The translations under genes and the position numbers were made by a program. A stretch of DNA of 64,000 nt, taken from Myxococcota bacterium. Its GTDB lineage: Bacteria; Myxococcota_A; UBA9160; PR03. The stretch is taken from positions 91,402 to 155,401 of the forward strand of contig JBFIML010000002.1 of NCBI GenBank assembly GCA_041611735.1, given 5' to 3'. Positions 38,648 to 58,407 of the stretch are shown in pieces (position 1 is the first letter of the stretch; the number at the start of each line of letters is the position of its first letter). Under the pieces are notes generated by a model that was not told the DNA's origin, searched no databases, and was given only the letters and a program-made list of their open reading frames with translations.

Positions 38648-38648
38648 G

Positions 38649-39956: not shown

Positions 39957-39991
39957 TTTCTGCTCGCCGCTGCCTAGACTTGGCGGCGTTT

Positions 39992-40067: not shown

Positions 40068-40129
40068 CTTCGCGCGGCGGCTTCTCCCCGCCGGGGCGCG
40101 GAACGAGGCGCAAGATGCGGGAGGGCAGC

Positions 40130-40693
40130 ATGACGGGACGCTTGCTCGGTCCGGCCGGAATCGCCGGGGTCCTGCTCCTCCTGGCGCTTCCCCTGCATGC
40201 CGCCCGGGGCGAATGGGTGCGCGGGGAGACCCGCTTCAACCTGCGGACGGGTCCCGGGGTCAACTACCGGATCACCGGCAACGTGGAGCGGGACGAGCCC
40301 GTGCAGGTGACGGCCCGCGAGTCCGGCTGGGCACAGGTGCGGAGCCGGACCGGCGCCGAGGGCTGGCTCCTGGCCCGCTACCTGCAGCAGACGCCGCCCG
40401 ATGCCCTGCGCATCGAGCGCAACGAGACCGAGCTCGCCTCGGTGCGGGAGGAGGCCGAGGGCCTCAAGCGGGACAACGAGCAGCTGCGCCAGGAGAACGA
40501 GCGCCTGCGTCAGCAGGAGACCGACCAGGGCGAGGAGGTCCGCCGCCTCACCGAAGAGAACCTGGATCTCAAGGCCGGCGAGCGCTGGCCCTATCTGATC
40601 ACCGGGGCCGCCATCCTGGTGACCGGCATGCTGGCGGGCGCGCTGTTCGCGCGGGCCGCGGGCCGTCGGCCCCAGCCGCGCATCCGCCTGTAG
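40130..40693 (+). CDS. SH3b domain + coiled coil + C-terminal TM protein (YgiM-like)
   Basis: Signal peptide, NLRTGPGVNYRI...GWAQVR...EGWL, coiled coil, TM followed by a basic tail. Confidence 0.8.
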   Translation: MTGRLLGPAGIAGVLLLLALPLHAARGEWVRGETRFNLRTGPGVNYRITGNVERDEPVQVTARESGWAQVRSRTGAEGWLLARYLQQTPPDALRIERNETELASVREEAEGLKRDNEQLRQENERLRQQETDQGEEVRRLTEENLDLKAGERWPYLITGAAILVTGMLAGALFARAAGRRPQPRIRL

Positions 40694-41653: not shown

Positions 41654-43105
41654 TCAGCGCCGCCAGAAGCCCGGCGACAGCAGGATCAGGATCGTGAACA
41701 CCTCGAGGCGCCCGGCCAGCATCCCGAAGCAGAGCGCGAGCTTCACGGTACCCGGGAAGTGCGCGAAGTTGTCGAAGGGGCCGACCGCCCCGAGTCCCGG
41801 CCCCACGTTGCCGACGGCGGTGAGGGCCGCCGAGATCGCCGTGAGCGGGTCGTAGCCGGCCATGGCCACCACGGCGGCCAGACCCGCGGCGAGCATTGCA
41901 TAGGCGGTGAAGAAGGCCCAGATCCCACCCAGCACGTCCGCGGGGACGGCACGGTCTGCGTACTTCACCGTGCTGACGGCGTGGGGATGAAGCAGGCGGG
42001 AGAAGGCCACCCGCAAGGCCCGGATTCCGAGCAGCACGCGCAGGCTCTTGACGCCTCCCGCCGTGGAACCGGCCATGCCGCCCAGGAACATGAGCTGAAG
42101 CAGCAGCAGCTGCCCGACACTCGGCCAGAGCTCGAAGTCCGCGGTGGCGTAGCCCGTGGTGGTGAGGATCGAGACCACCTGGAAGAGTGCCGCGCGCAGC
42201 GCCGCGGGCTCCTGCGGAGGCAGGCGGACCAGGAAGAGCGTGATCAAGGCCGTGGTCCCCACCACCATCCACGCGAAGTAGCGCAACTCCGCGTCCCGCC
42301 AGACGTCCAGGAAGCGCCGCTGCACCAGCCGGTAGTGCAGGACGAAGTTGATGCCGGCGCAGAGCATGAAGAAGATCAGGACCCATTCGACGAAGGGGGA
42401 CTGGAACGCGCCGACCGAGGCGTCCCGGGTGGAGAAGCCCCCCGTGGCCAAGGTGGTGAGCCCGTGGCAGACCGCGTCGAAGAGGGGGATGCCGCCGGGA
42501 CCCCAGAGCAGCAGGATCTCCGCGGCGGTGAGCACCACGTAGATCCCCCACAGGCGCCGGGCCGTCACGGCCACGCGCGGCTCCACCTTGTCCGAGATCG
42601 GGCCCGGCACCTCGGCCTTGAAGAGCTGCATGCCACCTACGGGCAGCAGCGGCAGGATCGCGATGGTGAACAGCACGATCCCCATGCCGCCCACCCACTG
42701 GGTGAGGGCTCGCCACAGCAGCAGCGCCCGGGAGCTGCCCTCGATGCGGGTCATGACGCTGGAGCCCGTCGTCGTGAAGCCCGCCACGGACTCGAAGATC
42801 GCATCCACCATGCCGAGCGTGTCGGTGAAGAAGTAGGGCAGCGCGCCGAACAGCGACACCAGCAGCCAGCCCACGCCGACCACCACGAACCCGTCGCGGG
42901 CACGCAGCCGCCAGCCAGCCCGTCCGCCCCGGGGCCGGGTGGAGCCGACCACCGAGGCACCCACCACCGCGGCGATGGCCGCGCTGAGCAGGAACGGCTC
43001 GAGGGCCTCGCCGCCCCCGAGCGCCAGGCCGAGGGGCAGGAGCTGGAGCGCCGCCAGCAGCAGCAGCAGCCAGCCGAGCAGGTGCGCGTCGACCAGGGCG
43101 TTCAT
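41654..43105 (-). CDS. trkH: Trk potassium uptake membrane protein
   Basis: FESVAGFTTTG, LATGGFS, LTTTGY, GSTAGG, GNVGPG, GRLE. Confidence 0.95.
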   Translation of the reverse strand: MNALVDAHLLGWLLLLLAALQLLPLGLALGGGEALEPFLLSAAIAAVVGASVVGSTRPRGGRAGWRLRARDGFVVVGVGWLLVSLFGALPYFFTDTLGMVDAIFESVAGFTTTGSSVMTRIEGSSRALLLWRALTQWVGGMGIVLFTIAILPLLPVGGMQLFKAEVPGPISDKVEPRVAVTARRLWGIYVVLTAAEILLLWGPGGIPLFDAVCHGLTTLATGGFSTRDASVGAFQSPFVEWVLIFFMLCAGINFVLHYRLVQRRFLDVWRDAELRYFAWMVVGTTALITLFLVRLPPQEPAALRAALFQVVSILTTTGYATADFELWPSVGQLLLLQLMFLGGMAGSTAGGVKSLRVLLGIRALRVAFSRLLHPHAVSTVKYADRAVPADVLGGIWAFFTAYAMLAAGLAAVVAMAGYDPLTAISAALTAVGNVGPGLGAVGPFDNFAHFPGTVKLALCFGMLAGRLEVFTILILLSPGFWRR

Positions 43106-43111
43106 CGAGGC

Positions 43112-44566
43112 TCAGGCGGCGGACAGCAGCCGGCCCACCCGGGCCACGTTCTCGTGGGTGGTGATGAGCACCACGTGGTCCCCGGGTGTGATGCGGAAGT
43201 CCCCGCGTGGCACCAGCAGTTCGCCGCCATGCCGAACGCCCACCACCAGGGCGCCCGGCAGGTGCTCGCCCAGCTGGCGGATCGTCCCGGAGCAGAGCAC
43301 GCTACCCGGGGCCACCTCCCCTTCGAAGGCCTCCATGCCCTCCTGCAGCAGGGTCGCCACGGACAGCACGCCCTTGCCACGCACGTAGCCGAGCACCATG
43401 TCGATCACCAGCTGGCGCGGGACGATCGGCGCGTCGATTCCGATCTCGGAAACGAGGCTGGCCACGGCGGGGTTGTCCACCAGGGCGAAGGTGCGGTGGG
43501 CGCCCAGCCGCCTGGCGAGCAGGGCCGCCACCAGGTTCGTCTCGTGGCTGTCGGTCGCGGCCACGAAGGTGGAGGCCTGCTCCACGTCCTCCTCCTCGAG
43601 CAACGCCTGGTCCGTGGCGCAGCCCCGCACGACCAGCGTCTGCTCCAGGTCGTCCTGGGCCTCCCGGGCACGCAGCTCGTCCTCCTCGATCAGCTTGACG
43701 CTCACGGGCCGCCGTCGGCGCAGCGACTCGTCGAAGCCGAGCTTGTCGCTGTCGAAATCGCTGCCGCGCTCCAAGCGCCGGGCCAGGCCCAGGCCCAGGG
43801 GCGTGGCGCCCGCGACGATGACGTTCTGCCGGCTCTCCCCGCGCGCACCGAGCAGGTTGAGCACGGGAGGCAGGTCGCGCTGGGCCACCGCGAAGTAGGC
43901 GATGTCCCCGGCCCGGATCTCGTCTTCGCCCCGCGGGATGAGCCACTCCCGTCCGCGCTCGATGGCGGCCACCAGCGTGGGCGTGTCCGCGAACATGAGG
44001 TCCACGTTCTTGACCAGCAGATCGGCGAAGTCGGAACTCTCCGGGATGCGGAAGCCCACCACGAGGAGCTCTCCACCGAAGAAGCTGCACACGTCCTGAG
44101 AGCCAGGGACCGCCAGCAGATTGGCGATCTTGTCCACGGCGGTCTCGATCGGGTTCACGCTCACGTACTCGTCGCCATGAGCGCCCTTCACGGCCTGGAA
44201 CGCCCGCGCGTGGTCCGGGTCCATCAGGCGGACGATGCAGCCCGGCACGCCGAACGAGGCGGCCAGCACCCCGACCACCAGGTTCGCCTCGTCGGAGCCC
44301 GTGGTGGCCAGCACGAGGCGCGCCTTCTCGATGCCGGCCCGCCGCAGCGTGGGCGCCGTGGCCCCGTTGCCGGACACGACCCGCACGTCTCCGAGCCGGA
44401 CGTCGAGATCCCGGGCCAGGTCGCGTTGGCGTTCTACCAAGGTGACGTCGTGGCCATCGCTGGCCAGACGCTCGGCCAGGGTGCCGCCCACCAGGCCGCC
44501 GCCCACCACCAGGATCGCCTGATGACGCCGGCTCGCCTCGCGGCGCGCCCGCTGGCGCTCGGCCAT
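43112..44566 (-). CDS. trkA: Trk regulatory subunit (two RCK domains)
   Basis: VVGGGLVG NAD-binding motif, duplicated RCK-N/C architecture, adjacent to trkH. Confidence 0.92.
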   Translation of the reverse strand: MAERQRARREASRRHQAILVVGGGLVGGTLAERLASDGHDVTLVERQRDLARDLDVRLGDVRVVSGNGATAPTLRRAGIEKARLVLATTGSDEANLVVGVLAASFGVPGCIVRLMDPDHARAFQAVKGAHGDEYVSVNPIETAVDKIANLLAVPGSQDVCSFFGGELLVVGFRIPESSDFADLLVKNVDLMFADTPTLVAAIERGREWLIPRGEDEIRAGDIAYFAVAQRDLPPVLNLLGARGESRQNVIVAGATPLGLGLARRLERGSDFDSDKLGFDESLRRRRPVSVKLIEEDELRAREAQDDLEQTLVVRGCATDQALLEEEDVEQASTFVAATDSHETNLVAALLARRLGAHRTFALVDNPAVASLVSEIGIDAPIVPRQLVIDMVLGYVRGKGVLSVATLLQEGMEAFEGEVAPGSVLCSGTIRQLGEHLPGALVVGVRHGGELLVPRGDFRITPGDHVVLITTHENVARVGRLLSAA

Positions 44567-44999
44567 GCCTCCTCCCCAGGTGCGACGGCGGCGGGAGGGT
44601 AAGGCATCCCGGGCGCCACTCCAGCGACCGGGCGGCTCACAGGAGCAGCGTCACCACCGACACGTCGAGCTCCGCTCGGGCGTCGAGGGTCCAGGCGGTG
44701 CGAAGCCGCGCGTCGCGATCGAGTGACCGAGCGGGGGGCCGATGAGGACGGCGGCCAGCAACAGCGAGCCGCGGAACGACTCGGTGCGGGCGCTCGGCGG
44801 CGAGCGCCACGGCCTGCAGCGGCCGCTCGGGATCCGGGACCGGCTGGCGTCCCTTCCGGAACCCGGGGCGCGAGCTCAGACACGCGTGGGCCGCCACCCC
44901 GGCGAGGGTGAAGGGCGTGGCCAGGGGGAGCAGCGTCCGACGCGTCCCCGCTCCAGGCCCGCACCGCTCCTCGGCGTCAGGATCCGGGCTTGCGCCCGG

Positions 45000-45034
45000 T
45001 TGAAGATTGAAGTGATTACTCCTAGAGTAATGAC
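45000..45034 (+). promoter_or_regulatory. Promoter and palindromic operator of the MerR-men operon
   Basis: AT-rich island: TTGAAG (45000-05), 17 nt, TAGAGT (45023-28), 6 nt, ATG; inverted repeat ATTACTC-CTA-GAGTAAT (45015-31). Confidence 0.7.
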
Positions 45035-45790
45035 ATGGATTATCGTGTGGAACAGCTGGCAGCCCGGGCGGGCGTCTCGGTGGATACGATCCGCTTCTAC
45101 CAGGGCAGGGGCCTGCTTCCGCCCCCGCGCCGGCGCGGCCGGGTGGCAGTCTACGGGGACGCCCACCTGGAGCGGCTGCGTCGCATCCGTGCCTGGGCCC
45201 GGCAAGGGCTTCCCCTCGCGGTGATCAAGCGGATGCTGGATCGCCCGTCCGACCCGGAGGCCGACGAGCGCCTGCTGGCCGCCGTGGCCGGCGAGCGCCT
45301 GGGCGCCCGCACGCTGTCGCGGCCCGAGCTCGCCGCGGAGTCGGGCGTGCCGGAGCCGCTGCTGCGCGCGGCCGAGTCGGCAGGACTGCTCGAGCCTCTG
45401 CGCGTGGACGGCGAGGAGCGCTTCAGCGAGGCCGACCTGGCCATGGCCCGGGCGGGGCTCGCGATCCTGAGCGCGGGCTTCCCGCTGGACGAGCTCCTGG
45501 AGCTCGCGGTCTCGCACGCGCGCGCCACCCAGACGCTGGCGGAGCGGGCCATCGCACTGTTCGACCGTCATGTGCGTCGGGGAGCGGGCGGGGGCCACAC
45601 CGACCCCGAGGCGGTGGCGCGCGCCTTCGAGCACCTGCTCCCGGAGTCCACACGCCTGGTGGCGTTGCACTTCCAGCGAACGCTGGTGGCGCGCGCCCTG
45701 GAGCGTCTGGCACGCAAGCGCGACGAGCGGGCGCTGCGGCGCGCCCTCGCTGCGGTGGAGTCCGGCCGCCTCGAGGTCGCATGGCGCTAG
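45035..45790 (+). CDS. MerR-family transcriptional regulator with a second HTH-like repeat
   Basis: YRVEQLAARAGVSVDTIRFYQGRGLL; second repeat LSRPELAAESGVPEPLLRAAESAGLL. Confidence 0.88.
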   Translation: MDYRVEQLAARAGVSVDTIRFYQGRGLLPPPRRRGRVAVYGDAHLERLRRIRAWARQGLPLAVIKRMLDRPSDPEADERLLAAVAGERLGARTLSRPELAAESGVPEPLLRAAESAGLLEPLRVDGEERFSEADLAMARAGLAILSAGFPLDELLELAVSHARATQTLAERAIALFDRHVRRGAGGGHTDPEAVARAFEHLLPESTRLVALHFQRTLVARALERLARKRDERALRRALAAVESGRLEVAWR

Positions 45791-46485
45791 CAGCCCTCCC
45801 CCACGGTGCGACCAAGCGCGAGCGCGTGCAGGCCATGTTCGACCGCATCGCTCCCCGCTACGACCTGCTGAACCGCATCCTCACCATCGGCCTCGACCAG
45901 CGCTGGCGCCGCGCCACCCTCGACCTGGCGGGGGTCGGTCCGGACGATCGCGTGTTGGACGTGGCCTGCGGCACCGGGGACCTGGCCCGGCTCGCTGTCG
46001 CGCGCGGCGCGAGGGTGTGCGGGCTCGACTTCGCCGGAGAGATGCTGCGCCGGGCGCAGGGACACGACCAGCGTGTGGCCTGGCTGCGCGCGGATGCCGC
46101 CGCCCTCCCGCTTCGGGACGGCTGGGCGAGCGTCATCGTGTGCGGATTCGCCCTGCGCAACTTCGTCTCGATCCCGCCCGTGCTCGACGAGATGGCGCGC
46201 GTGCTCGCCCCAGCCGGCCGCCTTGCGCTCCTGGAGGTGGACCGTCCCGAGCCGCGCTGGCTGCGGGCGGGGCACGGGCTGTACTTCGACCGGCTGGTGC
46301 CGCGCATCGGGGGCTGGCTCTCCGACCGTGCCGCCTACGACTACCTGCCGCGCTCCACCGCCTACCTGCCTCCGACTGCCGAGTTCCGGGGCTGGCTCGA
46401 GGCGGTGGGCTTCGAGACGCCGGTGCGCAGCCGGCGGCTCCTGGGCGCCGTCCAGATCTGGACCGCGCGGCGGCGGAGCGCCTGA
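45781..46485 (+). CDS. menG: Demethylmenaquinone methyltransferase (UbiE/MenG)
   Basis: VQAMFDRIAPRYDLLN, VLDVACGTGD, FALRN, AYDYLPRS. Confidence 0.9.
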   Translation: MALAALPHGATKRERVQAMFDRIAPRYDLLNRILTIGLDQRWRRATLDLAGVGPDDRVLDVACGTGDLARLAVARGARVCGLDFAGEMLRRAQGHDQRVAWLRADAAALPLRDGWASVIVCGFALRNFVSIPPVLDEMARVLAPAGRLALLEVDRPEPRWLRAGHGLYFDRLVPRIGGWLSDRAAYDYLPRSTAYLPPTAEFRGWLEAVGFETPVRSRRLLGAVQIWTARRRSA

Positions 46486-47873
46486 TGCGCGCCACGCTCC
46501 CGGACGCGGTGCGGCAGCGCGTGCGCCAGCTCCCCGACGCGATCACCCTGCTGCGCGTGCACCTGGAGCTACCCGCCGACCAGGCACCGCGGCCGCAGCT
46601 GCCCGTCTCGGCGGCACCCGCCTTCGCCTGGGCGGAGCCGGATCGGGACTTCGCGTTCGCCGGCTGGGGCGCCGCGGTCTCCCTCGAGGCGCAAGGTCCG
46701 GAGCGCTTCGCCGCGATCGCTGCGCGCGGCCGCCAGATCGCCACGCAGAGCGTGGAGCTCGGCGCCAAGCAGGTTCCGGGCGAGACGCCCTTCTGGGTGG
46801 GCGGCTTCGCCTTCGATCACGAGGGATGCCGGCGCGAGCCCTGGCACGGCTTCGCACCGGCACGCTGGTGGGTTCCGGAAGCGCTGCTGGTGCGACGCGA
46901 CGGTCGAACCTGGGCGATCGTCGCGACCCGCACCGAGGGTCGCGACCCGACGCGGTGGATCGCGCGGCTGGAGGCCCAGCTGCGCGCCCTGCTCGAGGAG
47001 GCGCCCGGCGCAGCCCGCGGGGCGACCCGCCCCAACGCTCCGGTCGCACCCTGGGACGGCGAGCGCAGTGCGTTCCTGGAGCGGGTGCGAAGCGCCCGGC
47101 AGGCCGTGCGGGAGGGGAAGCTGGAGAAGCTCGTCGTGGCGCGGGAGCTCGGCGTGCAGATCGCCGTCGACTCGCCGGCTGCGGCGCTCCTGGCCCGTCT
47201 GGGGCGAAGCCATCCCGGTTGCCGGGTTTTCGCAGTGCGTTGCGGCGACGGGCTCTTCCTGGGGAGCAGTCCCGAACGGCTGGTGTCGGTGCGGGGGCGG
47301 CGGCTGTGGGCGGACGCCCTGGCGGGCTCGGCGGCGCGGGGCGCCGACGCCCGCCGCGACGAGCAGCTGGCCCGCATGCTTCGGGAGAGCAAGAAGGAGC
47401 AGGAGGAGCACGCCGTCGTGGTGCGCGCGTTGTGGCAGGCGCTGGCGCCCGCGTGCCGCGTCCTCCAGCTTCCCGCGGCGCCGCGGGTGCGCCGTCTGGC
47501 CACGATCCAACACCTGCATACCCCGATCCGGGGCCTGCTGCGCGCGCCCCGTCCCTTTGCCGTGCTCGAGCTCGCCGGACGCGTCCACCCGACGCCGGCC
47601 GTGGCGGGAGCCCCGCGCGAGGCGGCCCTGGCGTGGCTGCGCCGACACGAGGGCATCGAGCGCGGCTGGTATGCGGGCCTGGTGGGCTGGCTCGACGCGC
47701 GCGGCGAGGGTGACCTGGCGGTGGCGTTGCGTTCGGCGCTGCTGCGCCCGGGCGCGGCGTGGCTCTACGCGGGCGCGGGGATCGTCGCCGGCTCCGAGCC
47801 CGAGACGGAGCTCGCGGAGACCGACCTCAAGCTGCGCACGGTCGGGGACGCGCTGGCGGGGGACGTCCCGTGA
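46485..47873 (+). CDS. menF: Isochorismate synthase
   Basis: KLVVAR, GSSPERL, ALAGS, KEQEEH, HPTPAVAG, RGWYAG, AGAGIV. Confidence 0.9.
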   Translation: MRATLPDAVRQRVRQLPDAITLLRVHLELPADQAPRPQLPVSAAPAFAWAEPDRDFAFAGWGAAVSLEAQGPERFAAIAARGRQIATQSVELGAKQVPGETPFWVGGFAFDHEGCRREPWHGFAPARWWVPEALLVRRDGRTWAIVATRTEGRDPTRWIARLEAQLRALLEEAPGAARGATRPNAPVAPWDGERSAFLERVRSARQAVREGKLEKLVVARELGVQIAVDSPAAALLARLGRSHPGCRVFAVRCGDGLFLGSSPERLVSVRGRRLWADALAGSAARGADARRDEQLARMLRESKKEQEEHAVVVRALWQALAPACRVLQLPAAPRVRRLATIQHLHTPIRGLLRAPRPFAVLELAGRVHPTPAVAGAPREAALAWLRRHEGIERGWYAGLVGWLDARGEGDLAVALRSALLRPGAAWLYAGAGIVAGSEPETELAETDLKLRTVGDALAGDVP

Positions 47874-49654
47874 GCACAGGGAGCGCCAACCAGGTCTTCG
47901 CCACCTCGTTCGTGGAAGGGCTGCTGTGCGCTGGCGTCACCGACCTGTGCGCGTGCCCGGGATCGCGCTCCACACCCGTGGTGGCCGCGGCGGTGGCCAC
48001 GCCGGGGCTGCGGCTGTGGTCGCACCTGGACGAGCGCGCGGCCGCGTACTTCGCATTGGGCCTGGCCAAGGCCCGCCACGGACCGGTGGCGATCCTCTCC
48101 ACCTCGGGCACGGCCGCCGCGAACTTCCTGCCGGCCGTGGCGGAGGCGTGGCATGCGCGCGTTCCCCTGGTCGTGCTCACCGCGGATCGCCCACCCGAGC
48201 TGCGTGGCTGGGGCGCGGGGCAGACGCTCGACCAGGTCAAGCTGTTCGGATCCCACGTGCGCTGGTTCGCCGAGACGCCGCCGCCCGAGGGCACCACCCC
48301 CGACGCGCGCTATGCGCGGGCACTGGCGAGCCGCGCGGTGGCGGTGGCCCGGGGCCGACCGGCGGGGCCCGTCCACCTGAACCTCCCCTTCCGGGAGCCC
48401 CTCGCGCCGGGCGACGGGCCCGTCGCAACCAGGGACGCGGTCGCTGCGCTCGGCCGACCCGCCGGACCCATGTGCCTGGCAGGCGCCCCTCCCGAGCCCG
48501 ATCCCGCGTGCGTCGAGCGGCTGCTCGGGCCCGCCCGCGTCGCACGCCACGGTGTGCTGGCCTGCGGTCCCCTGGACGCGGGCCCCGCCTTCGCCGAGGC
48601 GGCGGTGCGGCTGGCCCGGGCCGCGGGGTGGCCGCTCCTCGCCGACGCGCTGTCCAATCTGCGCGGGGGTCCGCACACCAAGGAGGCGCCCCTCGTGGCG
48701 GGCTTCGACGCGTTGCTGCGGGACGAAGCCTTCGCCGCCGGGCACGCACCGGACTTCGTGATTCGCTTCGGCGATCCGCCCACCAGCAAGGCGTGGCGGC
48801 TGTGGCTCGAGCGTCACCCGGAGGTCCACCTGGGGGTGGTGGACCCGGACGACGGCTGGGCGGACCCGAGCCACCTGGCGGCGCACGTGGTTCGCGCCGA
48901 GCCGACGGCGCTGGCGCGAGCGCTGGCCGAACGGCTCGAGCGTTCCGCCCCGCCCGGCGCGCCGGCGTGGCGCCGGGCATTCCTCGACGCAGAGCGTGCC
49001 GCCCAGGAGATCTTCGAGGCCTCGGGAAGCGAGGCGAGCCCGCTGCTGGAGCCGCGCCTGGTGCGTGAGATCGCGGCGGCGCTGCCGGACGGCGCGACGC
49101 TCTACGTCTCGAACAGCATGCCCGTGCGCGACGTGGATTCCTTCCTGCCCATCTCCGCGCGGCGACTGCGCATGCTGGGACAGCGCGGCGTGAACGGCAT
49201 CGACGGCATCGTCTCCGCCGCGCTGGGCGCCAGCGCGGGAAGCCCGGGGCCGGTCGTCTGCCTGATCGGTGACCTGGCCTTGCTGCACGATCTGGGCGGC
49301 CTGCTGGCCGCCCGGCGCCACGAGCTGCGCGTCACCTTCGTGGTCGTCAACAACGACGGGGGTGGGATCTTCTCCTACCTGCCGGTGGCGGACCTGGGCG
49401 CGCGGGTGGCCTTCACCGAGCAGTTCACGACCCCCCACGGTCTGGCGCTGCGGTCCGCGGCCCAGCTGTTCGGGCTGGGCTACGAGCGCGCCGGCACGGC
49501 GGCGGAGCTCCGTCCGGCGCTCGCGGCTGCCCTGGAGGCCCCCGGCAGCACGCTGCTCGAGGTGCCGCTGGATCGGATGGCGAGCGTCGCCGAGCACCGC
49601 GCGCTCTGGCAGCGCGTGGGCGCGGCGCTGCGCGCGCCGGAGCGCCCGGCGTGA
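47870..49654 (+). CDS. menD: SEPHCHC synthase (ThDP-dependent)
   Basis: PGSRSTP, DERAAAYFALG, TSGTAAANF, GPVHLNLPFREPL, RGVNGIDG, NNDGGGIF. Confidence 0.96.
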   Translation: MSTGSANQVFATSFVEGLLCAGVTDLCACPGSRSTPVVAAAVATPGLRLWSHLDERAAAYFALGLAKARHGPVAILSTSGTAAANFLPAVAEAWHARVPLVVLTADRPPELRGWGAGQTLDQVKLFGSHVRWFAETPPPEGTTPDARYARALASRAVAVARGRPAGPVHLNLPFREPLAPGDGPVATRDAVAALGRPAGPMCLAGAPPEPDPACVERLLGPARVARHGVLACGPLDAGPAFAEAAVRLARAAGWPLLADALSNLRGGPHTKEAPLVAGFDALLRDEAFAAGHAPDFVIRFGDPPTSKAWRLWLERHPEVHLGVVDPDDGWADPSHLAAHVVRAEPTALARALAERLERSAPPGAPAWRRAFLDAERAAQEIFEASGSEASPLLEPRLVREIAAALPDGATLYVSNSMPVRDVDSFLPISARRLRMLGQRGVNGIDGIVSAALGASAGSPGPVVCLIGDLALLHDLGGLLAARRHELRVTFVVVNNDGGGIFSYLPVADLGARVAFTEQFTTPHGLALRSAAQLFGLGYERAGTAAELRPALAAALEAPGSTLLEVPLDRMASVAEHRALWQRVGAALRAPERPA

Positions 49655-50568
49655 GCGATCGTTGCGAAGTGGGCGGGAGCCATCGCTTCCAGGTGGGTGG
49701 GCACGCGCTCCACGTGGAGGTGCGGGGAGCCGGGCCCCCGCTGCTGCTGTTGCACGGCTTCACCGGGTCGGTGCGCAGCTTCGACGGGATCATCGAAGGC
49801 CTGGCGACGCGCCACCGTACGATCGCCGTGGACCTGCTCGGGCACGGCTGCTCCGACGCCCCCGACGATCCGGCGGTGTGGAGCATGGCGCGCTGCGTCC
49901 GCGACCTGGTGCGCGTGCTCGAGCTCACCGACGCGGTTCCCGCGCACCTGCTGGGCTACTCCATGGGCGGTCGCGTCGCCCTCCAGCTGGCCGTGTCGCA
50001 CCCCGAATGGGTCGCGTCCCTGATCCTGGTGGGGGCCTCCGCCGGCCTGCAGGACGCCAGGGCACGCGCGGCCCGGCGACGCCAGGACGCCGCGTGGGCG
50101 GACCTGCTGCGGCGCGAAGGCCTGGAGCCCTTCGTCGAGCGTTGGACCGCCCAGGCGCTGTTCGCCAGCGAGCGTGGGCGGGGCACCGCCCACGCCGGTC
50201 GCCTGCGCGCCGAGCGGCTGGCCAACCGCCCCGAAGCCCTGGCCCGCAGCCTGGAAGGGCTGGGCACCGGCGCGCAGCGGCCCCTGCACGGGCAGCTGGC
50301 CCTGCTCCATCGCCCTGTGCTGCTGGTGGCCGGGGAGCACGACGCGAAGTTCCGGGCCATCGCCGCCGACCTGGCAGCACGGCTGCCCCGCGCGCGCACC
50401 GCCGTCGTCGCGGGCGCCGGCCACGCGGCGCACCGGGAATGCTCCCCGCGCTTCCTGGCCATCGCAAGCCGATTCCTGGCCGATCCGGAGCGGGCGGTAC
50501 GTGGGCCCCGACGGAGCAGGCCGTTCAACCCGATGCGAGAAGGAGACCCGATCCGTGAGCAGCCCTGA
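49651..50568 (+). CDS. menH: SHCHC synthase (alpha/beta hydrolase)
   Basis: [25 protein letters not shown]; men context. Confidence 0.9.
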
Positions 50569-51376
50569 CTGGAAGTCGGTTCGAGCCTACGAGGACATTC
50601 GCCTGGAGCGCGCCGAAGGCATCGCGAAGATCACCATCGCGCGCCCCGAGGTACGCAACGCCTTCCGCCCCCAGACGCTGTTCGAGCTCCTGGAAGCCTT
50701 CGCCTGGGCGCGCGAGGAGCCGGAGGTGGGCGTGATCCTGTTCACCGGGGAGGGTCCCGAGGCCTTCTGCTCCGGCGGGGACCAGCGCGTGCGCGGGGAC
50801 GCGGGCTACGTGGATCACCGTGGCGTCGCGCGGCTCAACGCTCTCGATCTCCAGCGCGCGATCCGGACGCTTCCCAAGCCGGTAATCGCCATGGTGGCCG
50901 GCTACGCGATCGGGGGCGGCCACGTGCTGCACCTGGTGTGCGATCTCACCATCGCGGCCGAGAACGCCCGCTTCGGGCAGACGGGGCCCCGGGTGGGAAG
51001 CTTCGACGCCGGCTTCGGAGCTGCCTATCTGGCGCGCGTGGTGGGACAGAAGAAGGCCCGGGAGATCTGGTACCTGTGTCGTCAGTACGACGCCCGCCAG
51101 GCGCTGGACATGGGACTCGTGAATGCCGTCGTGCCGCTGGCGGAGCTGGAATCGACGGCGGTGGACTGGGCCGGACAGATCCTCCGGCACAGCCCGCTCG
51201 CGATCCGCTGCCTGAAGGCCGCCTTCAACGCCGACTGCGATGGCCAGGCCGGGCTCCAGGAACTGGCCGGCAACGCGACCCTTCTGTTCTACATGAGCGA
51301 GGAGGCCCGGGAGGGTCGGGACGCTTTCCTGGAGAAGCGGGAGCCCGACTTCAGGCGCTTCCCATGGCGTCCCTAG
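50555..51376 (+). CDS. menB: 1,4-dihydroxy-2-naphthoyl-CoA synthase
   Basis: [38 protein letters not shown]. Confidence 0.97.
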
Positions 51377-52269
51377 CCCCCGCTCCCGCCGCCCGCGAGC
51401 GGGTCGCGACATGGATCGAGGCGGCGCGGCCGCGCACGCTCCCGGCGGCGGTGGCGCCGGTGGCGGTGGGGAGCTCCCTGGCCGCGGCCGAGGGCGCGGC
51501 CCACCCGGGCTATGCCGCGCTCGCCGGGCTGACGGCGCTGCTGCTCCAGATCGGTGCGAACTTCGCCAACGACGTCTTCGACTTCGAACGAGGAGCCGAC
51601 GCCGCGGATCGCCTCGGTCCGCGGCGAGCCGTGGCGGCGGGCCGGGTCTCGCCGCGGGCGATGCGCCTCGCGACCACCCTCGCCTTCGCCCTCGCCGCCA
51701 CCACGGGACTCGCGCTGGTGATGCGGGGCGGCTGGCCGATTGCCCTGGTTGGCCTGGCTGCCCTGGCCGCGGGTTTGGCCTACACCGGAGGGCCCTGGCC
51801 GCTCGGCTACCACGGTCTGGGCGAGCCCCTGGTGTTCGTGTTCTTCGGCGTGGTCGGCGTGGCCGGAACGCACTACGTCCAGGCCCTGGCCACCTCACCG
51901 CTGGCGTTCGGGCTCTCGGTTCCCGTCGGCCTGCTGGCCACCGCGATCCTCGTGGTCAACAACCTGCGTGACCGGATCGGCGACGAACGCGCCGGCAAGC
52001 GCACCCTGGCGGTGCGTCTCGGCGCGGGCCCGACGCGCGCCACCTACGGCGCGCTGGTGCTGGGCGCCTACGGACTGGTGGCGGTCGGGGTCGGGGTCGG
52101 CGCGCTGGGCACGGGCGTCCTGCTGGTCTTCGCGTCTGCGCCCTACGCGGTCGGACTGGTACGCCGTCTGGCACGGACGGACGGACGGGCGCTGAACCCC
52201 TGCCTCGGCGCCACGGCGCGCCTGGAGGCCGGCTTTGCCGGTCTGCTGGCGCTGGGACTGCTGTGGTGA
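51364..52269 (+). CDS. menA: DHNA polyprenyltransferase
   Basis: [35 protein letters not shown]. Confidence 0.95.
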
Positions 52270-53390
52270 AGCTCGAGCGGGCCCGCCTGCTGCCCTTCCG
52301 CCTGCCGCTCGCGCGTCCCCTGGGCCGGAGGGCGCCGCTGCTCCAGCGCGACGGCGTACTCCTTTCCCTCGAGGCCCAGGACGGGACGCCGGGCTTCGGG
52401 GAGGGCACGCCGACGCCCGGCTTCGGCGCGGACGGCGTCGAAGCCGTGGAGCAGGCGCTCCGGGATACCGTCCCCGCCCTGCTGGGAGCCGACGCCGACG
52501 ATCCGCGGCGGGCGCTCGCAATCCTGGACGACGTGGGTCTCGGCGGGGCAGCCCGGGCGGCGGCCGAGACGGCGCTGCTGGATCTCGCCACCCGGCGCGG
52601 GGGTCGCAGCCTGGCGTCCTGGCTGGGGACGCGACTCCGCGCGCTGCCGCGCGCCACGGTTCCGGTGAACGCGCTGCTCGCCGCCGAGGATCCCGAGAGG
52701 CTCGCCCACGAGACGCGCGCCCTCGTCCGGGGCGGCTTCGGGACCGTGAAGCTCAAGGTGGGCGGACGTCCCCTGGCGCGCGAGTCCGAGCGCGTGGGCG
52801 CGACCCGGCGCGCGGCCGGCGGCCGCGTCCGCATCCGCCTGGATGCGAACGGCGCGTGGAGCGAGGACGAGGCCCGCGAGGCCCTGGCGCGGCTCGAGCC
52901 CTTCGCGATCGAGTTCCTGGAGCAGCCCGTGGCCGCCGACGATCTCGACGCGCTGGCCCGACTGCGAGGGCGCACGCGGGTGCCCATCGCCGCGGACGAG
53001 GCGGCCGCCAGCCCGGAGCGGGCTCGCCGCGTGATCCAGTCCGGCGCCGCGGACCTGCTGGTGGTGAAGCCGAGCGTGGTGGGCGGACCGGCCACGGCGG
53101 CCGCGATCGTGCGCCTCGCGCACGATGCGGGGCTCGGCGTCGTGGTCACCTCCGCGCTGGACGGGGCGGTGGGCGTCGCCTGCGCGCTGCAGCTGGCCGC
53201 GACCCTGCCCGACGCGGGCAGGGCCTGCGGGCTCGCCACCGCCGGGTGGCTGGCGGACGACCTGGCTGCCCTGCCGGCACCCCGTGGCGGAACCCTGGCC
53301 CTGCCGCGAGCCCCGGGCCTGGGCGTCGCCCCGGATCCGGACGCCCTGGCGCGCCTGGCCCGGGGCCGCCCGCAGGATCTCGGCTCGTGA
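52266..53390 (+). CDS. menC: o-Succinylbenzoate synthase (enolase superfamily)
   Basis: KLKVG, RLDANG, EQP, ADE, VKPS motifs; men context. Confidence 0.9.
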   Translation: MKLERARLLPFRLPLARPLGRRAPLLQRDGVLLSLEAQDGTPGFGEGTPTPGFGADGVEAVEQALRDTVPALLGADADDPRRALAILDDVGLGGAARAAAETALLDLATRRGGRSLASWLGTRLRALPRATVPVNALLAAEDPERLAHETRALVRGGFGTVKLKVGGRPLARESERVGATRRAAGGRVRIRLDANGAWSEDEAREALARLEPFAIEFLEQPVAADDLDALARLRGRTRVPIAADEAAASPERARRVIQSGAADLLVVKPSVVGGPATAAAIVRLAHDAGLGVVVTSALDGAVGVACALQLAATLPDAGRACGLATAGWLADDLAALPAPRGGTLALPRAPGLGVAPDPDALARLARGRPQDLGS

Positions 53391-54868
53391 TCCCCGGGCT
53401 GCCCTGGCTCCCGGGCCGCGCCGCCGCCACACCGTGCCAGGTCGCGCTGCGCGTGGGGCGCGAGACCCTCGACTGGCAGGCGTTGGCGGCGGCGGTGGGG
53501 CGGCGCGCCGCGCACTGGCAGGCGGCGGGAGTCCTTCCGGGCGACGCGGTGGCCGCGCTGCTCCCCAACGGACGCGTCTTCCTGGAGGGCTTGCACGCAG
53601 CGGCGGCCCGTCGGGCGGTCTGGCTGCCGCTCAACGTGCGCCTCGCGGTTCCGGAGCTGGCCGCGCAGCTCCGGGACGCCGGCGCGCGCTGGCTGCTGCA
53701 CGACGACCCGCGCCGCGACCCACGCGTGCCCGAGCTGGTCCGCCACTTGCCCGAGCTGCGCCTCCTCGAGGCAGATTCGCCGCTGTCGGATCGCGGCCCG
53801 GGAGGCGCTCCCACGCCCGGCGCGCAGCCGGATGCCGTCCGCGTGCTGCTCTACACGTCCGGGACCACGGGGCGACCGAAGGGCGTCGAGCTGACCCACG
53901 CCAACTTCCACGCCAACGCCGTGGCCACCCGGCGTCGTCTGGGCCGGGCGTGCGGGCAGCGCTGGCTCGCGTGCCTGCCCCTCTTCCACGTGGGCGGGCT
54001 CGCCATCCTGACCCGCAGCGTGCTGCTGGGCGGCAGCGTCGTCGTGCACGAGCGCTTCGATGCCGAGGCGGTGAGCCGCGCCCTCGACGTGGAGGGGATC
54101 ACGGGCACGTCCCTGGTGCCCACGATGCTGGCCCGACTGCTGGAGGCTCGCGGCGACGCTTCCGCTCCGGCGACGCTACGTGTGGTGTTGCTGGGTGGCG
54201 GGCCCGTGGCCCCGGAACTCCTGGCGCGCGCCTGGCGCGGCGGCTGGCCCGTCGCGCCGAGTTACGGGCTCACCGAGGCCACCTCCCAGGTGGCGACGCT
54301 GCCCCGCAGCGCCTTCGGCGCCCGAACCGACGTGGCCGGTCGCGCGCTGCCCGGCCTCACCCTTCGCATCGCCGACGGCGACGGACGCCCCCTCCCGGCA
54401 GGGCGCGAAGGGGAGATCCTGGTGCGCGGCCCGACGGTGATGGCGGGCTACCGCAACCGGCCCGAGGAGACGGCGCGGGTGCTGCGGAGCGGCTGGCTGC
54501 GCACGGGCGACGTGGGCGTGTTGGACCGGGAGGGCTGGCTGCGCGTGCTGGCGCGACGTCGCGACCTGATCGTGACCGGCGGCGAGAACGTCTACCCGGC
54601 CGAGGTCGAGGCGGCGCTCCTGGCGCACCCCGAGGTGCGCGAAGCGGGCGTCGCACCTGCACCAGACCGGGAGTTCGGCCAGCGCGTGGAGGCCTGGGTG
54701 GTGCTGCGCCCCGGTGCCCGGGCGAACGTCGAGGGGATCCGCGCCTTCTGTCGCACCCGGCTGGCGGGCTACAAGGTGCCGCGGGCGGTGCATCTCGTCT
54801 CGGAGCTGCCGCGCACGGCCGCGGGGAAGCTGCTGCGGCGCGCGCTCCCGGAGCGACCGGGCGCCTAG
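53387..54868 (+). CDS. menE: o-Succinylbenzoate-CoA ligase
   Basis: YTSGTTGRPKG, LPLFHVGGL, SYGLTEATSQ, TGD, GGENVYP. Confidence 0.92.
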   Translation: MIPGLPWLPGRAAATPCQVALRVGRETLDWQALAAAVGRRAAHWQAAGVLPGDAVAALLPNGRVFLEGLHAAAARRAVWLPLNVRLAVPELAAQLRDAGARWLLHDDPRRDPRVPELVRHLPELRLLEADSPLSDRGPGGAPTPGAQPDAVRVLLYTSGTTGRPKGVELTHANFHANAVATRRRLGRACGQRWLACLPLFHVGGLAILTRSVLLGGSVVVHERFDAEAVSRALDVEGITGTSLVPTMLARLLEARGDASAPATLRVVLLGGGPVAPELLARAWRGGWPVAPSYGLTEATSQVATLPRSAFGARTDVAGRALPGLTLRIADGDGRPLPAGREGEILVRGPTVMAGYRNRPEETARVLRSGWLRTGDVGVLDREGWLRVLARRRDLIVTGGENVYPAEVEAALLAHPEVREAGVAPAPDREFGQRVEAWVVLRPGARANVEGIRAFCRTRLAGYKVPRAVHLVSELPRTAAGKLLRRALPERPGA

Positions 54869-54886
54869 CGGCCCTCTCATGAATCC

Positions 54887-56194
54887 CTAGTCGATCTCGT
54901 GACTCAGGCTCTCCAACTCCCGCCGACGCGTCTCGGGCAAAAGGAACAGCACGAGGCCCGCCGGGATCATGAAAAGGGCGCACCAGCTGACGCTGGCCGC
55001 CAGCCCGCCCACCAGCTGGGCCGCCGCCCCCACCAGGGCGAGGCCGGCGGCGGCCCCGAGCGTGTCCAGGAGCTCGAGCCAGCCGGCGGCGGTGCTGCGT
55101 TGCGAGGTGGGGAACAGCTCCGCCGAGAGCGCGCGGAGGATCACGTGGCCGCCCGTCGCGCAGAAGACGAAGCCGATCCAGCCCAGGGGGATCGCGAGGC
55201 CGCCACCCCGGTAGAGCAGCCAGCCGAAGGCCGGGGCCAGGGCGAGCAGGGCGCAGCCCGCCAGGCGCCGGCCGTGTCGGTCCCCCAGATGGCCCGCCGC
55301 CACGTTGCCCACGATGCCGAACGCGCCTCCGCCCGCCACCAACAGCGAGTACTGCCACGGCGCCCAGGCGCGCCCTTCCAGCAGGTGGTAGCCGGTGAAG
55401 GCGTAGACCGGCATGCGGCCCAGGGCCGAGAGCCAGCCGAGGGCGGCCAGGCCGCCCGCCCGCCCGGGGTGCGTGCGCAGCAGGGCCACGAACGGCAGGA
55501 GCCACGCCAGGCGTCCGCCCGGGCTGGCTCCCCGGGCCAGCTCGCTCTCCCGATGGCGGCGGAAGCGAGCGGTCTCCGGAACGTTGCGGCGGAAGCGGGG
55601 CAGCAGCAGCAGCGGCACCAGGCCCACCGCGTACAGGGCGCGCCAGCCGTAGGGAAGCACGTCCACCGCGGCGAAGATCAGCGCGCCGAGCCCCACTCCG
55701 GCGGCGCCCAGGGCACCGAGCATGCCCACCCCCCAGCCGCGGTGGCGGGCCGGGAACTCCTCGGCCACCACCACGATCGCCACCGCAAAGCCCGCGATCA
55801 GGAACGAGCGGGTCAGCATCTGGAGGATCACGAACTGCCCGGGCGTCTGGACGAAGGCGGTGAGGAACGTGCCGACCCCGGAGCCCGTCACCGCCAGCAG
55901 GAAGAGCCGCCGCCGTCCGATCCGGTCCGCCAGCGCCACCAGCAGGAAGCCGCCCACCGCGCCGAGCCGGACCAGGCTCAGGTAGCCGCCCAGCTCCGAC
56001 TCGGCCATGCCGAGATCCCGGGCGATGTGCTTGAGCGCCGCCGTGATCATGGAGATGTCGTAGTGCTCGAAGAGCAGCGCCAGGGCCACGAAGCCGAGCA
56101 GCCGCAGATGGGCCGGGTCGAGATCGGGCACCCGACCCAGGAAGGGCGGGATCCACCAGGGATTGCGGCGTCGAGCCGGCGGGGTCTGCGTCAC
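54887..56194 (-). CDS. MFS transporter
   Basis: LADRIGRR and LGDRHGRR loop motifs, EEFP..RG, ELFPT..R; probable GTG at 56194. Confidence 0.9.
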   Translation of the reverse strand: MTQTPPARRRNPWWIPPFLGRVPDLDPAHLRLLGFVALALLFEHYDISMITAALKHIARDLGMAESELGGYLSLVRLGAVGGFLLVALADRIGRRRLFLLAVTGSGVGTFLTAFVQTPGQFVILQMLTRSFLIAGFAVAIVVVAEEFPARHRGWGVGMLGALGAAGVGLGALIFAAVDVLPYGWRALYAVGLVPLLLLPRFRRNVPETARFRRHRESELARGASPGGRLAWLLPFVALLRTHPGRAGGLAALGWLSALGRMPVYAFTGYHLLEGRAWAPWQYSLLVAGGGAFGIVGNVAAGHLGDRHGRRLAGCALLALAPAFGWLLYRGGGLAIPLGWIGFVFCATGGHVILRALSAELFPTSQRSTAAGWLELLDTLGAAAGLALVGAAAQLVGGLAASVSWCALFMIPAGLVLFLLPETRRRELESLSHEID

Positions 56195-56214: not shown

Positions 56215-57450
56215 TCAGCGCAGCGGCGCGTAGCGCTGGCGCGCCTGCTCCGGCGTCAGCTTCGCGGCGGCGGCGATCGCGCGGAGACGCTCCGGATCCT
56301 CGAGATCCTCGGGCTCCACCCGCTCCTGGAGGGCTCGCGCCGTGCGCCACACGTCGCTGGTGAGGTCCACCAGACGCACGCGGGTGCGGCCGGTGCGGGC
56401 GTCCATCAGGTCCGTGAAGGGGACGGGGACGATGCGGCCTCCCTGGCGGGTGATGAGCACGTCGCGCTGCCCCTCCAGCAGGGTCCGCACCGCGCCCACG
56501 CCGAGCGAGCGGGTGTACTCGCGGTCGAAGGCCCCCGGCTTGCCGCAGCGCAGCTCGTAGCCCACGTCCTTGTCGCCGAAGGCGACCTTGACCCCGCGCG
56601 CCTCGAGGGCGGCCGCCACTGCCTGACGCAGCACCCGACCGAGGGGCACCTCGGCCAGCCGGATGTGGCCGTGCTCGTCCCGCTCCACGTCCTTCAGCAT
56701 CTCCAGGTCGTTCGGGTCCAGCCGCTCGCCCATGCCTTCGGCGATCACCGCCACGCCGTCGTTGCGTCCGCGGGCCAGCCGCTTGACGATGGACCCTTCC
56801 AGGGTCCGCACCACGTCCTCCAGGCGGATGGGCTCGCGGGGGAACTCCTCGGCGATCAGGGTGATGGGCGCGCCGGCCGCCATCCCGGCACCCAGGGCCA
56901 GGGAGCCGGCCTTGCGGCCCATCATCACCACGAAGAACCAGCGCCCCGTGGTGCGGCAGTCCTCGAGCAGGTTCTCCACCACCACGGCCGCATGCTCGCG
57001 GGCGGTCTCGTAGCCAAAGGTCGGGATTCCGGGCGGCAGCGGCAGGTCGTTGTCGATCGTCTTCGGCACGTGCGCCACGCGCAGGCGGCCGCCCGCGGCG
57101 TCGGAGACCTTCTTGGCCGAGAAGGCGGTGTCATCGCCTCCGATCGTGATCAAATGGTCCACGCCGAGCTGCTCGAGCGCTTTGGCCACCGCGGCCAGCT
57201 GCTCGGGCTTCCGGGTGGGGTTCGCCCGCGACGTGTGGAGGATCGAGCCGCCCCGCAGGTGGATGTCGGCCACAGCGTCGGCGCCGAGCTCCACCACGTG
57301 GCTCGTGTCGCCCTCCATCAGCCACTTGAAGCCGTGCAGGCAGCCGAGCACCCGCGCTCCGCGCTGGCCGGCGGCGAGCGCCGCCGCACCGATCACGCCG
57401 TTGATGCCCGGCGCGGGCCCACCGCCCACCAGGATGCCGAACGTCGCCAT
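56215..57450 (-). CDS. pfp: Pyrophosphate-dependent phosphofructokinase
   Basis: GGGPAPGIN, GGDD and PKTIDND (Asp/Lys pair diagnostic of PPi use), MGR, GYELR. Confidence 0.9.
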   Translation of the reverse strand: MATFGILVGGGPAPGINGVIGAAALAAGQRGARVLGCLHGFKWLMEGDTSHVVELGADAVADIHLRGGSILHTSRANPTRKPEQLAAVAKALEQLGVDHLITIGGDDTAFSAKKVSDAAGGRLRVAHVPKTIDNDLPLPPGIPTFGYETAREHAAVVVENLLEDCRTTGRWFFVVMMGRKAGSLALGAGMAAGAPITLIAEEFPREPIRLEDVVRTLEGSIVKRLARGRNDGVAVIAEGMGERLDPNDLEMLKDVERDEHGHIRLAEVPLGRVLRQAVAAALEARGVKVAFGDKDVGYELRCGKPGAFDREYTRSLGVGAVRTLLEGQRDVLITRQGGRIVPVPFTDLMDARTGRTRVRLVDLTSDVWRTARALQERVEPEDLEDPERLRAIAAAAKLTPEQARQRYAPLR

Positions 57451-57479
57451 CGCCCTTCCTCCGCCTCGCGCCGTTGCCG

Positions 57480-58373
57480 TCAGGAGCGGCGCCAGCCCCG
57501 CAGCAGCGCCGCCTTGAGACCGCCCGCCATGGGAAGCGCCGCCTCGGGCGCAGGCACCAGCCGGCGCCGCGCCGGCGGCTCGAGTCCGAGCTCCTCGGCC
57601 AGCTCCTCGGCGAGCGCCTGCATCTCCCGGTGGATCTGGGTGCCCCGGGCCTCGTGCAGGATCGAGAGCGGACGCGCGTCGGGCGCCGAGTTCAACGCCT
57701 CGACGCGGGGACTGCGCGAGAGTACGCCCCGAAACAGCGGCCAGCCCCGGCGCCGCACCTCGTCGCGCAGGTGTTCCGCCAGGTCGCCGCCCGCGACGTC
57801 GATGCGGGTGCGGCGATCCACCAGCGTGAGCAGCACCCGCCCGCGCCCGGCGCGGCCTCCCGCCCGCTCGAGCAGCTCGAAGGCCTTGGCGGCCTCTTCC
57901 AGGGAGGCCCGATCGGAGACCGGAAGGATGGCGAGGTCCGCGGCCCACAGGGCGTTGCGGGTCAGCGCCTCGAGGTCGCTCTTGGTGTCCAGCACGATCG
58001 GACCCCGCCAGGCCGTGCGGTCCAGCATGCGCCGCAGCACCAGCGGATCCTCGGCGCGGGCCTTGAGCAGCGCCGTGTCCGGGGACGACGGCACGAAGTG
58101 GATCCCGTACTGGCCGAGCTGGATCACGCGTTCGAAGCTGCGCTCGGCCCAGGCGTGCTTCAGGTTGCCCTCGCCGGGACCCGGGGCGCGCAGGCGCAGC
58201 ATGCGGTCCACGATGCCCTGGTCGTCCAGGGAGAGCAGCAGGATGGGCAGGTCCTCCTGAAAGGCCCGCAGATAGATGCCCAGGTTCGTGGCCAGGGTGG
58301 TCTTGCCGACCCCGCCCTTGTTGGAGGCGACGGTGATCACGAAGCCGGCAGCGGAAGCGGGGGGCTCGGGCAC
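57480..58373 (-). CDS. ParA/MinD-family ATPase (no adjacent parB)
   Basis: Deviant Walker A SNKGGVGKTT, IVLDT, ADLAILPV. Confidence 0.85.
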   Translation of the reverse strand: MPEPPASAAGFVITVASNKGGVGKTTLATNLGIYLRAFQEDLPILLLSLDDQGIVDRMLRLRAPGPGEGNLKHAWAERSFERVIQLGQYGIHFVPSSPDTALLKARAEDPLVLRRMLDRTAWRGPIVLDTKSDLEALTRNALWAADLAILPVSDRASLEEAAKAFELLERAGGRAGRGRVLLTLVDRRTRIDVAGGDLAEHLRDEVRRRGWPLFRGVLSRSPRVEALNSAPDARPLSILHEARGTQIHREMQALAEELAEELGLEPPARRRLVPAPEAALPMAGGLKAALLRGWRRS

Positions 58374-58407
58374 GCGGGGAATCTACCCATCGGCTAGGAT
58401 CAGCGCC

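Follow-up and report, generated by a model that had tools for sequence, protein, structure and literature searches.

What controls the genes for menaquinone (vitamin K2) synthesis is the question raised by a locus of an uncultured marine Myxococcota bacterium. Microbial regulation of quinone levels is described as poorly understood in a 2025 mBio paper (PMC12421875), and a term search in the text of that paper returned no transcription factor. The locus lies in a stretch of 64,000 nucleotides (assembly GCA_041611735.1, contig JBFIML010000002.1, positions 91,402 to 155,401; hereafter the window) and comprises nine consecutive + strand genes (45035-54868). The first encodes a MerR-like protein and the other eight encode menaquinone enzymes. 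Here we describe the conservation of this first gene, its predicted operator and its domain architecture. The comparative evidence suggests that it probably encodes a transcription factor specific to the menaquinone (men) pathway, which regulates its own operon.

The nine genes, identified with Pfam and NCBIfam, are as follows.

45035-45790, + strand: regulator gene, product of 251 amino acids (P0001); Pfam MerR_1 (PF13411) 95.9 bits, PF28507 precomputed on its cluster, AlphaFold model
45781-46485, + strand: menG/ubiE, demethylmenaquinone methyltransferase; TIGR01934 188.8 bits, cut-off 158
46485-47873, + strand: menF, isochorismate synthase; TIGR00543 299 bits, cut-off 225
47870-49654, + strand: menD, 2-succinyl-5-enolpyruvyl-6-hydroxy-3-cyclohexene-1-carboxylate (SEPHCHC) synthase; TIGR00173 450 bits
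49651-50568, + strand: menH, 2-succinyl-6-hydroxy-2,4-cyclohexadiene-1-carboxylate (SHCHC) synthase; TIGR03695 237 bits
50555-51376, + strand: menB, 1,4-dihydroxy-2-naphthoyl-CoA (DHNA-CoA) synthase; NF005637 488 bits; AAGGAG precedes the GTG start
51364-52269, + strand: menA, 1,4-dihydroxy-2-naphthoate (DHNA) polyprenyltransferase; NF004751 303 bits
52266-53390, + strand: menC, o-succinylbenzoate (OSB) synthase of the enolase superfamily; TIGR01927 134 bits, cut-off 131; MR_MLE_C 180 bits
53387-54868, + strand: menE, o-succinylbenzoate-CoA ligase; TIGR01923 336 bits, cut-off 330

The cluster thus holds the whole classical o-succinylbenzoate pathway (menF, menD, menH, menC, menE, menB, menA and menG). 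Six of the eight men enzymes reach an NCBIfam equivalog cut-off, and MenG and MenF reach subfamily-level cut-offs only (TIGR01934 and TIGR00543). An initial annotation, made from the sequence of the window alone, had described a nine-gene men operon headed by the regulator, with every junction overlapping by 1-14 nt. The Pfam and NCBIfam assignments and a check of the junctions bear this out. All eight junctions overlap, by 10, 1, 4, 4, 14, 13, 4 (or 7) and 4 nt in gene order, if each gene is taken to begin at the start codon closest to the preceding stop; the starts are model-based, and menG has alternative in-frame starts at 45826 and 45835. The same annotation had noted that the cluster has no menI gene, and rightly so. 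A Pfam scan found no hotdog/4HBT thioesterase among the nine genes or in 12 flanking open reading frames (ORFs), the rest of the genome not having been searched.

The linkage of orthologues to men genes was the neighbourhood test set beforehand for this annotation, and the linkage was found in both samples that were examined: in 79 of 80 loci related to the window and in 30 of the 30 best loci of Actinomycetota. The 80 loci, one per species genome, were picked by their similarity to the regulator alone (47-89% identity), and their gene order was read by tblastn with the nine proteins of the window. The regulator gene lies immediately upstream of menG (70 loci) or menF (9 loci), always on the same strand. 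At the 80th locus (L049) the sequence stops at the regulator gene. Most of the long loci have the same gene order through menE as the window. The 80 species are related by descent, and the linkage counts show conservation rather than independent trials. The overlap of the regulator gene with menG, 10 nt in the window, is kept in 57 of the 70 loci when the extrapolated menG start is compared with the regulator stop, and 10 nt is also the commonest value. This agrees with the earlier claim that the regulator is part of the operon, and the conserved overlap counts in favour of the proposed role as a sign of probable translational coupling.

The distribution of the regulator within the Myxococcota is restricted. 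In a sample of 401 genomes of this phylum, strong orthologues (E < 1e-60) were found only in the order to which the window belongs and in one further family of its class. Other Myxococcota of the sample have weak matches only (1e-21 to 1e-26). One locus among the 80 (L089) carries an Actinomycetota label, and its genome served as the centre for a sample of 301 Actinomycetota genomes. A strong homologue (E <= 1e-35) is present in 48 of these (5 of the 48 are unpublished). Among the best 30 of the 48 loci, menG comes next after the regulator in every case (28 of 28 when the unpublished L149 and L159 are excluded), and menF follows menG wherever the 1.5-kb flank is long enough. Longer Actinomycetota stretches have merR-menG-menF, with menD, menA and menB on the opposite strand (L127 and L134 among these stretches come from unpublished genomes). 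Because of the linkage counts in the 80 and the 30 other species, the arrangement of the regulator with men genes is not attributed to chance. In several Actinomycetota an in-frame stop codon occurs near the end of the match, TGA in seven genomes (G433, G437, G539, G619, G639, G688 and G722) and TAG in one (G452); here the profile probably reads past the stop of the gene.

The region directly upstream of the regulator gene is also conserved. In the window an AT-rich island lies immediately upstream of the regulator ATG, and the following elements were recognized there by comparison with the orthologous regions.

45000-45005, + strand: -35 element TTGAAG (TTGAC/TCGAC in orthologues), 17 bp upstream of the -10 element
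45007-45024, + strand: predicted operator, an 18-bp dyad T-N2-GAGY-N4-ACTC-N2-A, inside the 17-bp spacer
45016-45032, + strand: second, perfect palindrome ATTACTC-CTA-GAGTAAT, in which the ACTC half-site pairs with GAGT from the -10 element
45023-45028, + strand: -10 element TAGAGT

The alignment comprises 79 readable upstream regions, namely the window and 78 loci (L034 is masked and L092 is too short). They share one promoter architecture, which consists of a -35 element T[C/T]GAC, a 17-bp spacer, a -10 element TAGA[G/A]T and a start codon 6-8 nt further on. The core of the -35 element has T in 67, G in 76, A in 72 and C in 70 of the regions, and the -10 element has T in 69, A in 76, G in 70, A in 78, G or A in 51 or 27, and T in 78. 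The start codon lies 6 nt beyond the -10 element in 62 regions, the window included; two regions have 7 nt and 14 have 8 nt, and L045 is an outlier. Since the start codon follows the -10 element so closely, the merR-men mRNA is probably leaderless or nearly so. A scan of 44400-55400 for consensus promoters returned no site, the men promoter having 8 of 12 consensus matches where 9 are required. The same interval holds two terminator-like sites, a number not above that in shuffled sequences. No RNA-labelled run contains the stretch 44700-47900, which was found in marine and sediment DNA metagenome runs only, four of them possibly from the source sample.

The predicted operator is conserved within this promoter. 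GAGY-N4-ACTC is exact in 71 of the 79 regions and GAGY-N4-RCTC is found in 75. This core is flanked by a T three bases upstream and an A three bases downstream, each in 76 of 79, which makes an 18-bp dyad, and the information per column of the site reaches 1.99 bits. ACTC lies 13 nt from the start codon in 62, 14 nt in 2 and 15 nt in 14 of the regions. The half-sites in the window are at 45010-45013 (left) and 45018-45021 (right). A third half-site (GAGT) completes the second palindrome; it is found in only about two thirds of the orthologues (G in 51 and A in 27 of 79) and is therefore probably mostly the -10 element. The window also has a direct repeat TTGAAG-A-TTGAAG at 45000-45012. The second TTGAAG copy makes the left half-site AAGT, and the operator of the window therefore departs from the GAGY consensus, which the closest relative (L013) retains.

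The same site precedes the regulator gene in the second phylum. TAGAGT followed after 6-8 nt by a start codon was found in all 30 Actinomycetota loci, RCTC-N-TAGAGT in 29, and the full dyad with the -10 element in 20 (19 of the 28 published). When 74 sequences are aligned together (40 of the Myxococcota type, 28 from Actinomycetota and 6 fusions to MenF, described below), the recognition region is at least 90% identical at D17, T18, R20, Y22, Q23, R36, Y40 and H44. A common DNA-reading head together with a common site is what would be expected of a conserved regulator-operator pair.

The site is the only one of its kind in the genome of the window. In a weight-matrix scan of the whole 4.09-Mb assembly the men promoter scored 35.2 bits and the next, unrelated site 14.4. 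Five related genomes with menB outside the cluster each have a single exact copy of the 19-nt pattern, which lies at the merR-men promoter. Three sites with one mismatch in those five genomes had no men homologue in the loci examined (L099 is AT-rich), and their count does not exceed that of the reversed-pattern control. Because there is one site per genome, the predicted regulon is the men operon itself.

The protein was modelled with AlphaFold from 40 orthologues (mean predicted local distance difference test score 86.6). In the model, residues 1-69 form a canonical MerR winged helix-turn-helix (wHTH), and the linker after it, of variable length in the alignment, contains a short helix (74-87). 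A degenerate second wHTH (94-146) follows, then two long helices that form a hairpin (151-181 and 191-227) and a last helix (231-243). MerR_1 of Pfam matches two stretches; PF13411 has a cut-off of 21.6 bits and PF00376 scores 48 bits. The model and the two MerR_1 stretches agree with the initial annotation, which had read a MerR helix-turn-helix, a second repeat of the same kind and a helical C-terminus from the translation, and had also found the protein to be free of cysteines (the count is 0). The N-terminal MerR-type wHTH that defines the MerR family is thus present, and it matches DNA-bound structures of the family with Z of 10-11.7. PF28507 (HTH_Rv1828), precomputed on the cluster of the regulator, is also present on each of the 120 listed homologues, and the protein has the MerR_1 plus HTH_Rv1828 architecture of the FtsR/Rv1828 family. 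The C-terminal part (residues 92-217) matches the C-domain of Rv1828 (5ydc; Z 8.6, root-mean-square deviation (rmsd) 5.3, 118 residues aligned), and the model matches SCO5550 (2dg6; Z 8.6) over residues 3-236. The C-terminal module is at least 90% identical among the 74 sequences at P150, F176, F198, P203, H212, F213 and R215. A further match, to the N-domain of the adenylyl cyclase Rv1264, was considered as a sign of homology or lipid binding and rejected as too weak (Z 8.3, rmsd 6.2, 152 aligned); template modelling scores from Foldseek against this regulatory domain are 0.36-0.46. Databases label the regulator merely as a MerR family transcriptional regulator.

Further evidence comes from proteins in which the regulator is joined to MenF. 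A profile search of 1.84 billion representative proteins returned 163 at E <= 1e-30. Seven of the best 150 representatives, of 644-761 amino acids, have an N-terminal MerR_1 and a C-terminal Chorismate_bind domain, and are composed of regulator profile positions 1-227 and a full-length MenF. For one fusion (P0041), most of the 120 clusters listed at 90% identity are annotated MerR plus PF28507 plus Chorismate_bind. Where clusters of this type are named, they are isochorismate synthases of metagenome-assembled genomes (MAGs) labelled Acidimicrobiales, Acidimicrobiaceae or Actinomycetota. No close relative of P0041 was found in the 301 Actinomycetota genomes, the best identity being 37-49%. In 4 Actinomycetota genomes (L115, L123, L125 and L131) the HTH_Rv1828 and helical module stands alone, as a protein of 150-200 amino acids directly upstream of menF. 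Proteins of about 615 amino acids with PF28507 and Chorismate_bind (e.g. P0250) were considered as fusions without the first helix-turn-helix and were not counted, because their alignment begins at residue 2 opposite regulator residue 94 and a mis-called start is possible. In 9 of the 79 loci (L022, L033, L034, L036, L038, L046, L050, L062 and L078) the regulator gene is followed by menF with no menG in between, and this juxtaposition is the arrangement that a fusion of the regulator with MenF would require. Judged from these sequences, the fusions and module-only forms connect the C-terminal module with MenF as such, beyond the operon, and the module-only proteins may act on MenF without DNA binding. 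A complex prediction for MenF and the regulator gave a score of 0.00 in two runs, which were made without controls and count neither for nor against an interaction.

The invariant linkage, the dyad in the promoter of the gene itself and the single site per genome fit a pathway-specific, autoregulated factor encoded within its own operon, which makes this the likely role of the first gene. The initial annotation had proposed a pathway-specific regulator of vitamin K2 synthesis. This part of the proposal is supported by comparative evidence; its further suggestion of a naphthoate or quinone as signal is possible. In the mechanism that we propose, a dimer of the regulator would bind the 18-bp dyad through the conserved N-terminal winged helix. 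The bound protein would then repress the leaderless merR-men transcript rather than activate it by untwisting the DNA in the manner of MerR. Repression is somewhat favoured over classical activation because the hexamers are near consensus, the 17-bp spacer is optimal and the dyad reaches into the -10 element. The HTH_Rv1828 and helical module (residues ~90-245, with P150, F176, F198, P203 and H212-F-x-R215) would be the sensing or dimerising part. The signal could be a carboxylate of the pathway (chorismate, isochorismate, OSB or DHNA), the quinone, or the state in which MenF is. Of these, the conserved Arg and His residues and the fusions to MenF suggest a pathway carboxylate or the MenF state.

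A more specific form of this mechanism, which we offer tentatively and regard as rather doubtful, is a trigger-enzyme circuit. The HTH_Rv1828 and helical module would dock on MenF or sense its catalytic state, and flux through the pathway would set the transcription of the men operon. In Acidimicrobiia both would have merged into a DNA-binding isochorismate synthase, and in other Actinomycetota the module would persist without the DNA-binding head, as a pure partner of MenF. BirA, PutA and NadR are known trigger enzymes, bifunctional proteins that act both as enzyme and as regulator. The Acidimicrobiia-type fusions likewise join a DNA-binding regulator and the first enzyme of the pathway in one chain, whereas the window has the regulator and menF as separate genes with menG between them.

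Several observations weigh against a pathway-specific autoregulated factor. Binding to DNA, the start of transcription and whether control is positive or negative are all deduced from sequence. The left half-site of the window (AAGT) has one mismatch to GAGY, and 10 of the 30 Actinomycetota loci have a degenerate left half-site. The right half-site abuts the -10 element, and its conservation may partly be that of the promoter rather than of an operator. The centre of the dyad is at about -19.5, some 1.5 bp off the centre of the spacer. The menB gene lies outside the cluster in 24 of the 56 loci extending as far as menA (L025, L026, L029, L033, L036 and L038 among the 24), where the factor would control only part of the pathway; the unlinked menB would escape the regulator, since no second copy of the operator was found in five such genomes. 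Finally, the fusions and the copies without the first helix-turn-helix suggest that the men-related role of the module may not need DNA binding.

Among the alternatives, the one that survives best is a classical MerR switch, which would stay bound to the promoter at all times, repress in the absence of its signal and, on binding a ligand, untwist the spacer and activate the men genes. The genuine MerR wHTH at the N-terminus and the position of the dyad between the -35 and -10 elements, as in the MerR family, are what such a switch would have. Classical activation by distortion needs spacers of 19-20 bp, as in MerR, CueR, SoxR and BmrR. Although the dyad here is placed in the spacer, that spacer measures 17 bp in essentially all orthologues and the hexamers are near consensus. 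The regulator also has no cysteine, and its layout is not the classical one, in which a long coiled-coil helix directly follows the wHTH and a C-terminal effector site is present. A second wHTH is inserted instead, no long dimerisation helix comes straight after the first, and the long helices begin at residue 151. A classical switch is therefore rather unlikely.

Alternatively, the regulator could be mainly a partner subunit of MenF that tunes or senses isochorismate synthase, with control of transcription secondary or absent. Acidimicrobiia-labelled MAGs commonly have the whole protein fused to the MenF N-terminus, module-only proteins lie directly upstream of menF in four genomes, and the module bears a modest resemblance to the autoinhibitory N-domain of Rv1264. 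That structural score is, however, within the range that the aligner gives for unrelated helical proteins, and menG sits between the regulator and menF in 70 of the 79 loci. A MenF partner would also leave the nearly invariant DNA-recognition helix and the conserved dyad at the promoter of the gene unexplained, and we consider it quite improbable as the main role.

The closest known proteins by architecture are FtsR of Corynebacterium glutamicum (Cg1631) and Rv1828 of Mycobacterium tuberculosis, regulators of ftsZ with the same MerR_1 wHTH, variable linker and C-terminal HTH_Rv1828. FtsR is reported to bind an inverted repeat of 25 bp at ftsZ, whose centre in C. glutamicum is at -73, and to have a linker of variable length (PMC6683498). 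The window regulator has an 18-bp dyad in the promoter spacer in place of this repeat, its predicted target is the men operon rather than ftsZ, and it occurs in MenF-fused forms. FtsR_Actino is its best NCBIfam match (residues 14-221, 63.4 bits against a cut-off of 150). Because this score is below the cut-off and the site differs, the protein is assigned the FtsR/Rv1828 architecture but not the identity of FtsR. An FtsR-like global or cell-division regulator that adjoins the men genes by accident would account for the shared domains and for the best family match, but is very hard to credit in view of the sub-threshold score, the invariant men linkage in two phyla, the conserved site unlike that of FtsR and its single occurrence in the genome.

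The likeness to other MerR proteins is confined to the head. The classical sensors (MerR, CueR, SoxR, BmrR, TipAL and MtaN) share the wHTH fold (Z 9-11.7; phmmer E down to 8e-9) and the placement of the operator between -35 and -10. They differ from the regulator, which has a 17-bp spacer, no cysteine and a degenerate wHTH inserted before the long helices, and whose predicted target is an operon for biosynthesis, not a gene for stress response or efflux. HspR is a plain repressor of heat-shock genes within the MerR family. Its NCBIfam N-terminal match to the regulator is weak (42 bits, cut-off 105) and the C-terminal module of the regulator is different. The HspR-associated inverted repeat (HAIR) operator has a GAGT...ACTC core with half-sites 7 nt apart, compared with 4 nt here. 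Pathway-specific control of menaquinone synthesis is also known in another form, as DHNA is reported to feedback-inhibit MenD in M. tuberculosis and S. aureus (PMC9835592; bioRxiv 10.1101/841569). That control is allosteric, and the one predicted here is transcriptional.

The window has a G+C content of ~74%, and its parent assembly of 4.09 Mb is 95% complete. Its nearest relatives in the genome collection are MAGs with a Myxococcota or Deltaproteobacteria label, and the stretch was found in marine metagenome runs; the organism is an uncultured marine Myxococcota MAG. The operon is bounded upstream by trkH-trkA and downstream by a convergent gene for a major facilitator superfamily transporter, both on the - strand. 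The trkH-trkA potassium uptake pair (41654-44566, - strand) reads away from the men promoter, with ~470 bp between the start of trkA (44566) and that of merR. Three ORFs near the promoter (44742-45224, 44876-45670 and 44434-44964) have no family match. Further upstream is a run of signalling or surface genes (35928-40693, + strand) that encode a HAMP-adenylate/guanylate cyclase, a TPR protein, an fn3-domain protein and an SH3_3 protein, followed by a luciferase-like monooxygenase (40700-41644). Downstream, an ORF of 941 amino acids with a phosphofructokinase domain (56215-59040, - strand) overlaps a ParA/MinD-like ORF on the same strand (57480-58373), and one of these two models is probably wrong.

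The regulator appears, from comparison of sequences, to be an undescribed switch for the menaquinone pathway in two unrelated phyla. No description of a MerR-type men regulator or of a MerR-isochorismate synthase fusion was found in the literature outside subscription journals, which were not covered. The spread over two phyla, the FtsR/Rv1828 architecture and the MenF-fused occurrence go beyond the initial annotation. What the locus contributes is a candidate transcription factor dedicated to the men genes, for which an operator, a leaderless promoter and a regulon of one operon are predicted, and the regulator is conserved in an uncultured class of Myxococcota and in about one sixth of the sampled Actinomycetota genomes. 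The proposed function would give the HTH_Rv1828 architecture of FtsR and Rv1828, hitherto known for the control of ftsZ, a second physiological role. The natural fusions to MenF hint at the origin of the signal. If the factor responds to a ligand, the protein and its operator could be used as a biosensor of men intermediates in strains for vitamin K2 production. If the trigger-enzyme reading is true, the two phyla would have a vitamin K2 trigger-enzyme circuit in common.

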